Assembly (NCBI GenBank): GCA_963748015.1
Contig: CAVVHE010000004.1
Location: 1,024,001 to 1,088,000, forward strand
Direction of reading: 5' to 3'
Length of the DNA stretch: 64,000 nucleotides
Origin: Terriglobia bacterium
Lineage (GTDB): Bacteria > Acidobacteriota > Polarisedimenticolia > Polarisedimenticolales > JAIQFR01
Part shown: in pieces, positions 13,565-64,000 of the stretch
Layout: the number at the start of each line of letters is the position of its first letter
Position numbering within the stretch: the stretch's first letter is position 1
Position numbers and translations under genes: made by a program
The notes under the pieces: generated by a model
Told to the model about the DNA's origin: nothing
Database searches by the model: none
Seen by the model: the letters and a program-made list of their open reading frames with translations, nothing else

Positions 13565-13726
13565 CCGGACGAGCACGGTCGGCTCCCCGCCCCTCGCGGC
13601 ACGTTTCGGCGTTGCGCGGCGAGAGCCGCCGCGCCGCCTCACTCCGGTTTTCGCGCGGTCGTCCAGGGAATAGACGACCGCGCGAAAACAGGGCCGCGAG
13701 GGGGGGAGCCGACCGCGCTCGTCCGG
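13565..13726 (-). repeat. Structured three-way-junction intergenic element, copy A
   Basis: Near-perfect closing stem of about 34 bp (13565-13600 / 13693-13726) encloses two hairpins. Junction sequences are shared with copies B and C at 63.4-63.9 kb. Confidence 0.8.
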
Positions 13727-60259: not shown

Positions 60260-61386
60260 CCGTCCCTCCCCTCCCCGGGCCGCGCGACTCGGATATGGCC
60301 CCCGTCCCAATCCCGCCCCGACAAGCCCGCCGACTCGATCTCGGCGAGCAGCGCGCGTCGGGTGAAGTAGCGCACGAACGAGCGCTTCATCGTTCCCCCG
60401 AGAGAGATCCAGCGGGAATGGCTCGAACCCCATTCCCCCTTCGGCGATCCCGCGCGACGGGCGAGCTGCAGGGTCAAGATAAACCTTTGGTAGGACGTTT
60501 TCACCCTGCGAACCCCGAGGAAGACCGACCCGTCCGGCTCGAGCCAGCGCTCGATCCGGCGAAGCAGGTCGATTCTCTCCCCCTCCGAGGGAATGAAGCT
60601 GTACACGTCGTAGGTGAAGAACACCGCGGAGAGCCCGCCGGCGGGCTCGTCGTGCGTCCTCAGGTCGCCCAGCACGAATTCCACGGACAGGCGAAGCTCC
60701 GACGCGGCGCGCCGGGACGCCTCGACCATCGCGGGAGCGTAGTCGAGCCCCCGGACTCGATATCCGTCCCGAGCGAGCCCGAAGGCCTCGTGACCCGCGC
60801 CGCTCCCCGCGACGAGGATCGTGCCCCCGCGCCGCACCGCCGAGCGCATGCGCTCGGAAAGGCGGGGCTCCCAGACGGGGACCTGCAGCCGCGCGTAGTA
60901 CGGCGCCTGCTCCTGGTACTTCTCCCGGACCGTGTCGGCCGGATCCGCCGACGCATCGACCCCCTCGCGCACGGCTTCCGCGAGGTCGAGGAAGAGCCGC
61001 CTCATCGCGGCGATGGGCCGGGGAACGGGAACGCTCTCGACCGCGACGCGTCCGAGCACCGCATCCTCGCCGACCTCGGCGCGCTCGCCCGGGTCCGAGT
61101 CTCCCGCGAGCACGAGCGACCCGGAGCGGACCCGCTCGACGCGCAGCACGTCGGGCACCCCCCCGGGCCAGGCCAGCACCACGTCGCCGCGCGCGATCCC
61201 GCGCGCGCCGCCCGGCTTCACCGCGATCCTCTGGCCGTGCGAGATCGCGGGCCACATCCGGTCGCCGACGTACGTCGTCTCGAGCCTGGACGCGCCGCGC
61301 GCCAGAAGGCGGAGGAGCGACGGCGTGGCGTACACCGGCGGGTCGACCAGGATCACCGCCGACAGCGGGTGAAAGAACGAGGTCAC
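60256..61386 (-). CDS. Degenerate S24/S26-peptidase-like domain fused to a class I SAM-dependent methyltransferase
   Basis: [14 protein letters not shown]...RGDVV...LAGD...VLGRV, then [25 protein letters not shown]. Overlaps both neighbours by 4 nt. Confidence 0.7.
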
Positions 61387-63383
61387 AGCAGGGCCGCTTT
61401 CTCGCGGAGGTACCGGATGCGGTCCCGGTGGGCCGCGGCGGCCTCGAAGTCGAGATCGTCGGCCGCGCGCCGCATCTCGGAGGCGAGCCGGGCGATCTCG
61501 GCCTCGAGGGCGGCGACGTCCTCGAACACCTCCTCGCCGTCCTCCTCCTCGAGCGGCACGGTGGAGTAGTCGGCCGCGAGGGGTGTGCCCAGGATCTCGT
61601 CCACGGCGCGCCGGATCGTCTCGGGGGTGATCCCGTGCGCCGCGTTGTACTCCTCCTGCCTCGCGCGGCGGCGGGCCGTCTCGTCGAGCGCGACCCGCAT
61701 CGAGTCGGTGACCTTGTCGGCGTAGAGGATCGCGGTGCCGTTGACGTTCCGCGCGGCGCGGCCGATCGTCTGGATGAGCGAGCGCGCGGAGCGCAGGTAC
61801 CCCTCCTTGTCCGCGTCCAGGATCGCCACGAGCGAGACCTCGGGGAGGTCGAGCCCCTCGCGGAGGAGGTTCACGCCGACGAGCACGTCGTACTCCCCCC
61901 GTCTCAGGTCCCTCAGGATCTTGACGCGCTCGAGGGTCTCGACGTCCGAATGGAGGTATTCCACCCTCACCCCGAGCTCCTTGTAGTACTCGGTGAGGTC
62001 CTCGGCCATGCGCTTGGTCAGGGTCGTGACGAGGACGCGCTCTCCCCCCTCGACCCGCGCGCGGATCTCCGCGAGCAGGTCGTCCACTTGCCCGTCGATC
62101 GGGCGGACGATCACCCGGGGATCGAGGAGGCCCGTGGGGCGGACCACCTGCTCCACGATCTCTCCTCCCGCGCGCTCGAGCTCGTGGTTCGCGGGGGTGG
62201 CCGAGACGTAGATCGTCTGCGGCCGTCGTTGCTGGAACTCGTCGAAGGTCAGGGGGCGGTTGTCCACCGCGGACGGGAGCCGGAAGCCGAAATTCACCAG
62301 CGTCGTCTTGCGGGCGAGGTCGCCCTTGTACATCCCCTCGATCTGCGGCACGGTGACGTGGCTCTCGTCGATCACGAGGAGCGCGTCCTCGGGGAAGTAG
62401 TCCATCAGGGTCGGCGGGGGCTCTCCCTTCGCTCGGCCCGTGAGGTGGCGCGAGTAGTTCTCGATCCCGTGGCAGTAACCCACCTCGGTCATCATCTCGA
62501 GGTCGAACAGGGTGCGCTGCTCGAGGCGCTGGGCCTCCAGGAGCTTCCCTTCCTTTTCCAGGGCGGCGAGCCTCTCCTTGAGCTCCGCGCGGATCGCCGC
62601 GATCGCCCGGAGCAGGTCCTCCCGCGGCGTGACGTAGTGGCTGTTCGGGTACACGGGCGCGCGATCGAGCGCCTCCAGCGCCTTCCCCCGCACCGGGTCG
62701 ATCCTCGACACCTTCTGGACCTCGTCCCCCCACAACTCGATCCGCAGCGCGTCCTCGGCGTAGGCGGGCCAGATCTCGATCGTGTCCCCCCGGACCCGGA
62801 ACGCGCCGCGACGGAGGTCCGCGGGGGTCCTCTCGTACTGGATCTCGACCAGCTTCCGGATCGCGCGCTCGCGATCGAGGCGTCCGCCGCTCTCGACGAG
62901 GAGCATCATCCCGTGATAGGCCTCCGGCGACCCGAGGCCGTAGATGCACGAGACGCTCGCCACGATCAGCACGTCGCGCCGCTCGAAGAGCGCGCGCGTG
63001 GCCGAATGGCGCATCCGGTCGATCTCCTCGTTGATCGTCGCTTCCTTCTCGATGTAGGTGTCGGACTGCGGGACGTAGGCTTCCGGCTGGTAGTAGTCGT
63101 AGTACGAGACGAAGTACTCGACCGCGTTCTTGGGAAAGAGCCGCCGGAACTCCTGGTAGAGCTGCGCGGCGAGCGTCTTGTTGTGCGCCATGACCAGGGT
63201 CGTGCGGTTCGCCCGCGCGACCACGTTCGCGATCGTGAAGGTCTTGCCCGACCCGGTGACGCCGAGGAGCACCTGGTCCGTCCGCCCCTCGGCGACGCCG
63301 CGGGCGAGCTTCTCGATCGCCTCCGGCTGGTCCCCGGTCGGCTTGAAATCCGACACGATCTCGAACTTCGCCACCTTCGTCAC
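61383..63383 (-). CDS. uvrB: Excinuclease ABC subunit B
   Basis: [53 protein letters not shown], and a C-terminal UVR domain. Confidence 0.98.
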
Positions 63384-63448
63384 GCTCCCTCGGCGATTCT
63401 ACCTTTCGCCTTCCGCGTTGTCAGGACGGGTGGTCGTGGCCGGGCAGC

Positions 63449-63601
63449 GGGCCGGAGGGCCAGGGACCGTACCTCGCCGGGCACGCTCGCCGGTTCGCGA
63501 TTCGCCGCGACGGCTCGCTCCGGTTTCGCTCGCGCCCGCCAAGGAAGGGCGGGCGCGGCGAAACAGGGCCCGGCGAGGTACGGTCCCTGGCCCTCCGGCC
63601 C
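63449..63601 (-). repeat. Structured three-way-junction intergenic element, copy B
   Basis: Perfect 34-bp closing stem (63449-63482 / 63568-63601) around the shared two-hairpin core. Confidence 0.85.
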
Positions 63602-63602
63602 T

Positions 63603-63752
63603 CGTGGCCCTCGCTGCGATCGGGTCCGAACGAAACGGCGTACAGCGGACGGCCGCGGCGGACGAGAGCAACGCTACTGCTCCAGCTCGCGCCTTCCGCC
63701 GCGACGTGGTGTGTACCACGCAGTTCCGCGCCGGGACCCGAATCGTGCCACG
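63603..63752. other. Multi-stem structured spacer between copies B and C
   Basis: Nested pairings: CGATCGGGTCC/GGACCCGAATCG, GCGGA/TCCGC, CGCGGCGGA/TCCGCCGCG, CGTGGT/ACCACG. Confidence 0.55.
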
Positions 63753-63916
63753 CGGCTCGCGCGATCCGGTCCGGGGCGCACCTCCCCGGGCCCTGTTTCG
63801 CCGCGCCTGCTATTCGATGGCAGGCGCGAGCGAAACCGGAGCGAGCCGGCGCGGAAGAACGCGCAACGGCGAGCGTGCCCGGGGAGGTGCGCCCCGGACC
63901 GGATCGCGCGAGCCGC
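63752..63916 (+). repeat. Structured three-way-junction intergenic element, copy C (inverted relative to B)
   Basis: Perfect 40-bp closing stem (63752-63791 / 63877-63916) around the shared core. Confidence 0.85.
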
Positions 63917-64000
63917 CCCCGCACCAACCCCCGCGCCGAGCGCCGGGCACGAGCACCCCGGTTTGCCGAACTCGGGCCCGCTGGTACTCTCTAGCGGGAG

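Follow-up and report, generated by a model that had tools for sequence, protein, structure and literature searches.

What sort of element keeps its centre in sequence and its arms only in pairing? The question is raised by two long hairpins with perfect closing stems which stand side by side, in opposite orientations, upstream of uvrB in a Terriglobia bacterium (assembly GCA_963748015.1). They lie near the right end of a 64,000-nt stretch of contig CAVVHE010000004.1, C4:1024001-1088000, referred to below as the window. A preliminary description, made from the letters of this window alone, had named them copies B and C of an unassigned three-way-junction motif and had left three options for its nature: a ribozyme-like RNA, a substrate of a protein or of RNase III, or a non-autonomous mobile element of the kind represented by the repetitive extragenic palindromes (REPs). 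B and C are members of a repeat family of about 60 copies located between genes. We favour, with some reserve, the reading that this family is a lineage-restricted, non-autonomous mobile hairpin element of about 150-190 nt, similar to REPs, REPINs and miniature inverted-repeat transposable elements (MITEs), differently built from all of these and read as a folded single strand.

Structure of copies B and C

In both copies the two arms are 100% complementary and enclose 85 nt (inverted-repeat search of positions 62500-64000). This search and the alignment of B, read on the minus strand, with C, read on the plus strand, agree with the closing stems first described, perfect over 34 bp in B and over 40 bp in C and different in sequence. 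The outer arms are unrelated in that alignment (the elements start with GGGCCGG in B and with GCGGCTC in C), and the cores are linked by a 115-nt inverted match of 85% identity (63468-63582 with 63777-63891). The junctions, which had been described as identical, indeed show the same strings in the two copies, GGGC-CCT-GTTTCG...CGAAAC-CGGAGCGA-GCCG...CGGC-GAGCGT-GCCC. The compensatory change proposed for the inner stem is found in hairpin 1, where CCTGC/GCAGG of C corresponds to CCCGC/GCGGG of B, and the fold of C, to which a U-G wobble had been ascribed, contains a single U.G pair at the top of the same hairpin.

The RNA folds of B and C both consist of a closing stem and two hairpins, with energies of -161.2 (C) and -143.2 (B) kcal/mol and z values of -15.3 and -13.9, and none of 200 shuffles was as stable. 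The same three-way fold is obtained with DNA parameters and on the opposite strand, at -101.1 and -100.2 kcal/mol on the two strands. The junction is compact in the fold: the CC of CCT is paired with GG in CGGAGCGA and the T is bulged, one A joins the two small-hairpin domains, and the base of hairpin 2 is a GC/GC mini-helix with a GA/GA internal loop, from which GT returns to the closing stem. The coordinates of these parts, and those of the other features mentioned below, are collected in Table 1.

Table 1. Features of the two hairpins, of the third copy in the window, of the neighbouring gene and of the close pairs of the family (window positions unless a contig is given; CM, covariance model)
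Feature	Position	Strand	Length	Basis
Copy B, whole element	63449..63601	minus (core orientation)	153 nt	inverted repeat, fold, CM match C4:1087471-1087583, E 7e-17
B closing-stem arm, perfect pairing with 63568-63601	63449..63482		34 nt	inverted-repeat search
B hairpin 2 (GCCG...CGGC, core orientation)	63489..63514	minus		sequence, fold, B/C alignment
B hairpin 1 (GTTTCG...CGAAAC, core orientation)	63523..63564	minus		sequence, fold, B/C alignment
B closing-stem arm	63568..63601		34 nt	inverted-repeat search
Spacer between B and C, outside the repeat, unique in the genome	63602..63751		150 nt	genome search, self-match only
Copy C, whole element	63752..63916	plus (core orientation)	165 nt	inverted repeat, fold, CM match C4:1087776-1087888, E 2e-16
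C closing-stem arm, perfect pairing with 63877-63916	63752..63791		40 nt	inverted-repeat search
C junction strand CCT	63792..63794	plus		columns invariant or nearly so in 85 sequences
C hairpin 1	63795..63836	plus		fold; helix 2 covaries
C junction strand CGGAGCGA, with the highest conservation in the family	63837..63844	plus		85-sequence alignment
C hairpin 2	63845..63870	plus		fold; helices 4-5 covary
C junction strand GAGCGT	63871..63876	plus		85-sequence alignment
C closing-stem arm	63877..63916		40 nt	inverted-repeat search
Copy A, second subfamily, longer hairpin 2	13565..13726	minus		CM match C4:1037589-1037708, E 9e-17
uvrB, neighbour of B, outside the element	61383..63383	minus		NCBIfam equivalog, 1065 bits
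Close pair (B/C)	C4:1087449/1087752	(-,+)		stem extension of CM matches
Close pair	C9:104178/104409	(-,+)		stem extension of CM matches
Close pair	C5:452028/452312	(-,+)		stem extension of CM matches
Close pair	C4:1562486/1562669	(-,+)		stem extension of CM matches

The repeat family in the genome

A search of the whole genome (4.83 Mb in nine contigs, about 69-70% GC, 100% complete by marker genes) with the junction motif gave 27 hits, 26 of which have the same architecture, all of them complete small elements. The covariance model (CM) built from these 26 elements matches the genome 64 times at E<=0.01 and 58 times at E<=2e-8. Complete hairpins are formed by 58 of the 64 matches, with lengths of 147-194 nt and closing stems of 31-51 counted pairs, a count that takes in a few junction-proximal pairs; in the remaining six the stems are short or decayed. 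The family comprises at least two subfamilies, one similar to B and C; in the other, hairpin 2 is longer (GGCGGCGCGGCGAC...GCCGCGCAACGCC) and the closing stem is interrupted by a small internal loop that is conserved. Copy A, which the preliminary description had already counted as a third copy of the same element, is located by the CM in the window and belongs to the second subfamily.

The element has no Rfam family at threshold and carries no REP tag, in agreement with its first description as an unassigned structured motif. At E<=10 the Rfam scan of positions 63300-64000 gave only plant and animal microRNA-precursor models, the best at 41.9 bits against a cut-off of 75, and they were rejected because any long hairpin matches them.

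Four close pairs exist in the genome, all in the (-,+) arrangement of B and C. The spacers of all four are unique sequence, and therefore the pairs are not a conserved composite element. Copies also form local clusters, five within 15 kb (C5:448783-463174) and four within 9 kb (C9:104178-112844), and the element-rich stretch at C5:448-453 kb contains ordinary genes, encoding a heptosyltransferase and a HAD hydrolase. At C7:4159-4420 a partial tandem duplication of an arm stands beside a complete copy, with a 30-nt repeat of 90% identity at C7:4391-4420, and in one relative (locus L095, G002:C26) three successive arm-like units stand at about 1900-2000 beside a complete copy.

Covariation of the helices and conservation of the core

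For the comparison across the family, 85 matches were aligned to the CM; this genome contributed 35 of its 64, related genomes (including L073/L074) 32 and metagenome loci 18. Standard pairs occupy 96.0% of the cells, against 75.2% in shuffles, and changes on both sides of a pair occur in 432 cells, against 119 in shuffles and with none of 500 shuffles reaching this number; these counts lean slightly to the modelled structure because the alignment was fitted to the model. When the 3' partners were slid by one to three columns, the double-change cells fell to 36-66 and the paired fraction to 31-53%. Compensatory changes are present in 25 of the 29 modelled pairs, and single pairs use three or four Watson-Crick types (columns 29/70: UA 29, GC 27, CG 21, AU 3). 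In one relative the base of hairpin 1, GTTTTCG/CGAAAAC, has been swapped for CGCGGCG/CGCCGCG, and the junction strands are unchanged. GGCCCT, CGGAGCGAG and AGCGTGCC vary little or not at all, and the near-invariant junction strands of the family can be written CC(U), (C)GGAGCGA(G) and GA(A)GCGU. Conserved junctions combined with freely covarying helices, first proposed from B and C, are therefore a property of the family, and the covariation in this larger set is strong.

Strong covariation and conserved unpaired junction nucleotides are also what would be expected of a structured RNA selected by the host, which is the main rival to a mobile element. The junction would then bind a protein or be catalytic, the stem would serve as a substrate of an RNase III-type enzyme, and some 60 regulators would act in cis or in trans, transcribed alone or within neighbouring transcripts. 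We consider this explanation unlikely, although not negligible. The element contains no conserved promoter or terminator and its outer parts are unconserved; near-perfect stems of 31-51 bp are unusual for bacterial RNA genes, and Rfam has no family for the element. Further points on both sides appear below, with the data from which they come.

Arms that differ between copies and match within a copy

The ends are the least conserved part of the element and the centre is the most conserved. Over the outer 24 nt no two copies in this genome are more than 83% identical, and the median is about 60% (1653 pairs). In the 365 pairs with at least 85% identity over the central 90 nt, the median for the outer arms is 62%, near the level of GC-rich unrelated sequence. 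Within a copy the situation is the opposite: in the 33 of 58 closing stems that could be parsed, mismatches number 17 and bulged positions 24, against 1173 Watson-Crick pairs, and a single subfamily-specific bulge near the junction accounts for most of the bulged positions. In one relative many copies have similar arms (...CGAAGTCCGCGTTCGAATTCGACC...), which looks like a recent burst, to judge from their sequences. The likeness between these copies stops at the base of the hairpin and, therefore, the whole hairpin is the unit.

The arms were also considered as 'guides', a role which was rejected: the outer 30 nt of the 58 arms gave chance-level matches of 16-21 nt elsewhere in the genome, and no convincing match to another locus. 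One longer match, of 30 nt at 90%, is to the neighbouring partial copy on contig C7.

Distribution among genomes and metagenomes

CM matches were found in 10 of 41 genomes, that is, this genome and 40 relatives. All three other genomes of the same genus match, with 1, 18 and 6 copies against 64 here, as do one of two genomes of the sister genus and 5 of 10 of one genus of a second family; in a third family none of 16 does. At E<=1e-5, a class-wide sample gave matches in 9 of 119 genomes, which belong without exception to the same two families, both of one order; for this count 31 candidates were scored per genome, and weak or unassembled copies may escape it, many of the genomes being fragmented. 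A strict three-part pattern retrieved 59 metagenome loci, 20 of them confirmed by the CM, and had no match in viral contigs. A narrower pattern, too tight for other subfamilies, gave nine loci in the named genome collection, two of them true by the CM and both in a metagenome-assembled genome labelled Terriglobia.

Gain, persistence and flipping of copies

The site of B and C is empty in the relatives. Between the DNA matches of uvrB and of the gene for a class A penicillin-binding protein (PBP) on the other flank there are 672 nt here and 110-188 nt in five of the five relatives examined, the sister genus included, and no element lies between the two genes in any of them. Therefore B and C arrived in this lineage; on the evidence of these alignments, they would have been gained at uvrB/PBP after the split from the sequenced relatives, the alternative being a loss in all five. 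In the opposite direction, 26 copies from four relatives, each with 2 kb of flank, were compared with this genome. Sixteen of them face collinear, shorter, element-free sites here, seven have a shared locus and three are unclear; by our own estimate, which takes some thousands of intergenic regions, about 0.4 of 26 loci would be shared by chance. The empty sites that the preliminary description had suggested looking for are thus seen from both sides. With these and some 60 copies, a REP-like non-autonomous mobile element is the best fit of the three options it had left. The many empty sites, and a copy number that goes from 1 to 63 within one genus, count against a structured RNA kept by the host.

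When the relative's letters at six shared loci were placed on the pairs of this genome, 280 pairs were unchanged, 37 carried double changes and were still paired, 12 carried one-side changes and were still paired, 47 were apparently broken and 17 fell in gaps. Many of the 47 broken pairs are in the outer arms, where the pairwise alignment slips, and the relatives' own stems are well paired. Pairing has thus been kept in place across a divergence that corresponds to 78-85% DNA identity in uvrB. The persistence of pairing and core at shared loci over this distance, with its 37 compensated double changes, also speaks in favour of the host-selected RNA.

At three of the shared loci the copy fits much better when turned round: the identities are 134/198 turned against 108/215 collinear at L085, 131/197 against 107/199 at L089 and 132/192 against 109/221 at L104, and the reverse is seen at the control locus L106, with 133/195 collinear against 109/214 turned. 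The copy-specific arms at L104 are visibly the same in both species (20 of 24 letters, counted by eye), so that an inversion in place is favoured over a new insertion. A comparison of strands gives the same orientation at L107 and L108 and the opposite one at L086, where the copy may be an independent insertion, since it is of another subfamily. The flips at three shared loci tell against the RNA explanation. Taken together, the comparisons show that the whole hairpin is gained and lost between relatives, and that copies persist, keep their pairing and can turn round in place.

Folded strand and orientation

In the closing stems G.T mismatches are commoner than A.C, with 8 against 1 in this genome (33 of 58 copies parsed) and 23 against 6 in the other copies (31 of 47 parsed), under a scoring that is blind to the mismatch type. 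A count based on minimum free energy folds gave 43 against 5, by a method that favours G.U. Of the 58 copies, 43 fold more stably on the core strand than on the complementary one, the median difference being 3.1 kcal/mol (-161.2 against -154.5 for copy C). The counts are not independent events because the copies are related by descent, and they hint at the core strand as the folded one. The greater stability of this strand as RNA and the excess of G.U over A.C in the closing stems count in favour of the RNA explanation as well.

The same data bear on another rival, a structural site acting at the level of DNA. As proposed for the bacterial interspersed mosaic elements (BIMEs), a host protein (gyrase, IHF or HU-like factors, a primosome or repair factor) would bind the element as a cruciform or a lagging-strand hairpin, and the element would have spread passively. 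Such a site would be consistent with the three-way fold of both strands under DNA parameters, with the almost purely Watson-Crick arms, with the intergenic position near gene ends and with flipping between inverted arms, which is a DNA-level event. However, a single folded strand is favoured over a symmetric cruciform by the small-hairpin covariation and by the excess of G.T over A.C on one strand. Moreover, no candidate binding protein has been identified, and on C4, the only contig whose GC skew switches clearly, 16 of 25 copies have the core on the same template strand, which is not a significant replication bias. We regard this explanation as quite improbable.

The orientation towards the neighbouring genes was determined with a crude frame test based on third-position GC. 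Among the 58 copies of this genome the core is opposite to both genes in 23 and in the same direction as both in 6, and 18 copies lie between convergent and 11 between divergent genes. The opposite orientation in 23 of 29 copies next to same-direction genes (p about 0.002) suggests an orientation-dependent effect on or from transcription, and counts in favour of the host-selected RNA. However, the bias was not repeated in the relatives' 26 copies, where the corresponding numbers are 10, 8, 5 and 1, with two copies left uncalled. Where the bias does hold, transcripts reading through from the neighbouring genes would contain the complementary strand and not the core.

Search for a mobilising enzyme

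The genome has a single gene for a Y1 (HUH, IS200-like) transposase (C5:25863-26207; L110:1390-1857, minus strand, 155 aa, Pfam Y1_Tnp), flanked by three local GTAG-containing repeats (GCTCCGTAGGAGC...), one of them inverted, which are found nowhere else in the genome. The gene sits in a stretch of lower GC (about 57-66%). According to Di Nocera et al. (2013, PMC3733652), Y1-type (TIRYT) genes of Acidobacteria carry their own flanking inverted repeats. The present gene resembles these and, from its sequence context, appears to be a separate REPtron/TIRtron with no relation to the element. Its GTAG repeats have no significant match to the CM of the element, and the CM search around the gene found no element (best E 0.5). 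Y1 genes are present in 29 of the 41 genomes and show no association with the element, being found in 6 of its 10 carriers and in 23 of the 31 genomes without it.

Other enzymes gave a similar result. The whole genome has no match to PF07282 (zinc ribbon of TnpB/Cas12f-type proteins) and none to the reverse transcriptase domain RVT_1. A C-terminal fragment of an IS91-type (Y2) transposase stands isolated in a 169-aa frame at C9:588993-589211. The IS110 family has seven matches. Five of them, with identical scores and 393-aa frames (C4:282255, C4:1434735, C8:530966, C8:817252 and C9:81932), are probably an active insertion sequence, judged by this identity, and two are divergent (C8:28417 and C7:23068). 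The five loci that were searched, the IS91 fragment and four IS110 copies, have no element nearby. The HUH/RAYT transposase or reverse transcriptase envisaged in the preliminary description as a possible associate is, therefore, not linked to the element in this genome. With no TnpB and a single, unlinked Y1 gene, an IS200/IS605-type element or guide RNA was rejected, and so was a retron or other reverse-transcriptase-linked RNA, with no RVT_1 in the genome.

Comparison with known systems

The resemblance to a type III hammerhead, pointed out from the start, holds for the topology, with three helices and the ends in the closing helix, in the folds of B and C and in the consensus fold of the 85 sequences alike. 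It does not extend to the core. The hammerhead core is CUGANGA...GAAA, with cleavage after UH, and the strands of the element are CCU, CGGAGCGA and GAGCGU; no ribozyme model of Rfam 15, the hammerhead or any other, matches it at E<=10. The closing stem is also far longer than that of any hammerhead known to us. A self-cleaving ribozyme carried by a mobile element could be modelled on the three helices, the approximately eight invariant unpaired nucleotides of the junction and the tandem G-A/G-A at the base of hairpin 2. However, the hammerhead core is absent, and the junction linkers of 0, 1 and 2 nt leave little room for a catalytic core. A ribozyme thus seems very improbable, and the option of a ribozyme-like RNA is reduced to a likeness in topology.

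The REP, BIME and REPIN repeats are closer. They are, like the element, short, GC-rich, extragenic palindromic repeats near gene ends, present in tens to hundreds of copies with numbers that vary among close relatives, thought to act as folded single strands and found in close inverted pairs (PMC3116915, PMC3733652). The element differs from REPs in its 150-190-nt unit with a 31-51-bp stem and a three-way junction, a REP being an imperfect palindrome of 20-40 nt or a doublet of these. It has no GTAG or CGTC tag, its outer ends are unconserved, and no RAYT gene is flanked by the same repeat. A REPIN consists of two inverted copies of one REP, whereas the element has copy-specific arms and a conserved asymmetric centre with two different hairpins. 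The lack of an adjoining transposase has a parallel in the CGTC-tagged REPs, which Di Nocera et al. (2013, PMC3733652) describe as abundant hairpin repeats without a dedicated adjoining transposase gene.

Bacterial MITEs such as ERIC/RU and Correia, families reviewed in PMC3184786 and PMC2229807, share with the element a length of 100-200 nt, long terminal inverted repeats that form a single long hairpin, an intergenic, non-coding position and a polymorphic presence. Their terminal repeats are conserved in sequence because the transposase reads them. In the element, by contrast, the ends are the least conserved part, and neither a parental insertion sequence nor a consistent target duplication was found for it. 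The family is uncatalogued, and where tested it fails the defining features of REP/BIME/REPIN repeats and of MITEs.

Two further systems with folded single strands were compared. Integron attC sites carry R''/R' boxes, RYYYAAC / GTTRRRY, at the base of the hairpin and belong to cassette arrays served by an integron integrase; they were rejected as candidates, the hairpin bases of the element being unconserved and its copies dispersed singly between ordinary genes, with no integrase search made. The genome ends of parvoviruses such as AAV are T-shaped hairpins, with a long stem and two small hairpins, which are handled by an HUH Rep protein and occur in flip and flop orientations. By analogy only, the element may be compared with them in its three-way junction, its GAGC-type repeats (GGAGCGAGCC and GGCGAGCG) and the two orientations of its tip. 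It is unlike them in being chromosomal, dispersed and bacterial, and it has neither a linear single-stranded genome nor a Rep gene linked to it; homology is not claimed.

A full-text search of the literature found no description of such a family, which does not prove that it is unpublished, and the matching passages of a 2026 preprint on mining non-coding elements contain nothing similar.

Weighing the proposed mobile hairpin element

As we picture the mobile hairpin element, the whole hairpin would be the unit and the compact three-way junction its constant part, recognised by a structure-specific enzyme on the folded single strand, the most likely form being single-stranded DNA of the core strand. 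For the long arms pairing would be sufficient, so that their sequence would drift and their complementarity stay. The perfection of the arms may come from selection for foldability together with correction from arm to arm, by template switching or gene conversion. Such a process is documented for quasipalindromes, where imperfect inverted repeats change towards the other arm through template switching (PMC7202029). The same arm-to-arm process might turn the element round in place, and recombination between the inverted arms would also explain the flips.

Several observations weigh against this interpretation. No mobilising gene was found linked to the element among the Y1, TnpB, reverse transcriptase, IS110 and IS91 types checked, and there is neither a parent element nor a gene-bearing copy among the 27 junction-motif hits in the genome. 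No two copies in this genome have near-identical arms, that is, there has been no recent transposition here. No consistent target-site duplication was seen in the 14 filled/empty alignments, with a 6-of-7 direct repeat at L092 and none at L098 and L103, in flanks too diverged for base-level calls. The signal for the folded strand is mixed: in the 29 inner modelled pairs G.U and A.C are nearly balanced (27 against 24, 11 of the 24 A.C cells being in two columns with a subfamily-specific bulge), and when all G.U pairs are counted the folds of the two strands differ little (43 against 39). Finally, the conserved cores, the randomised arms and the kept pairing point to selection on each copy in place, which would not be predicted of a purely selfish element.

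A role at the level of the host or of RNA is still conceivable, given that every copy retains the core and that orientation is biased in this genome. A bolder proposal, which we consider rather unlikely, is that the family represents a new class of bacterial single-strand element, by analogy a chromosomal counterpart of viral flip/flop, in which the compact T-shaped junction, with its tandem G-A positions and GAGC-type repeats, would be the only sequence-specific part and the arms, free to diverge, would be copied back from each other, so that the element would last and flip in place beyond the lifetime of a species. The reader of the junction could be an HUH-like or another structure-specific enzyme, or the junction itself could be a small catalytic or protein-docking RNA, and the host may have taken the element over for an orientation-dependent role at gene ends.

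Genomic setting of copies B and C

The PBP gene starts just beyond the end of the window on the plus strand (Transgly, 216 bits) and uvrB is on the minus strand, so that B and C lie in a divergent intergenic region. The link to uvrB that their position had implied is not real, copies of the family adjoining many unrelated genes. The conserved sequence of the relatives resumes about 30-50 nt to the right of C (window 63917-64000 and beyond), at CCCGGTTTGCCG...CTGGTACTCTC. This motif upstream of the PBP gene is kept in all three same-genus genomes and may be a promoter or leader. On a larger scale, GC skew changes from positive to negative at about 0.95-1.0 Mb of C4, just upstream of the window, and gene-strand bias shifts there too; the window is therefore close to a replication terminus or origin.

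In sequencing runs the largest share of the sampled words of the stretch in any run was 0.22. Four runs were assembled, giving short contigs, and in each of two of them a DNA contig extends from the uvrB side into B. In the RNA run among the four the elements are uncovered, with no joints across, and the run is uninformative on expression.

Significance of the family

Most of what is known of small structured repeats such as REPs, REPINs and MITEs comes from Proteobacteria and a handful of other groups, and their spread and persistence are debated. The present family, from an uncultured high-GC lineage, inverts the usual pattern, as its ends vary freely and its central three-way junction is conserved. 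It offers unusually clean material for asking how long inverted arms stay perfect while diverging, through selection or through template switching and arm-to-arm conversion, whether such elements flip in place, and whether repeats with no linked transposase are selfish or maintained by the host. A partner of the junction, if found, would define a new mode of recognition for an enzyme acting on single-stranded DNA or RNA.

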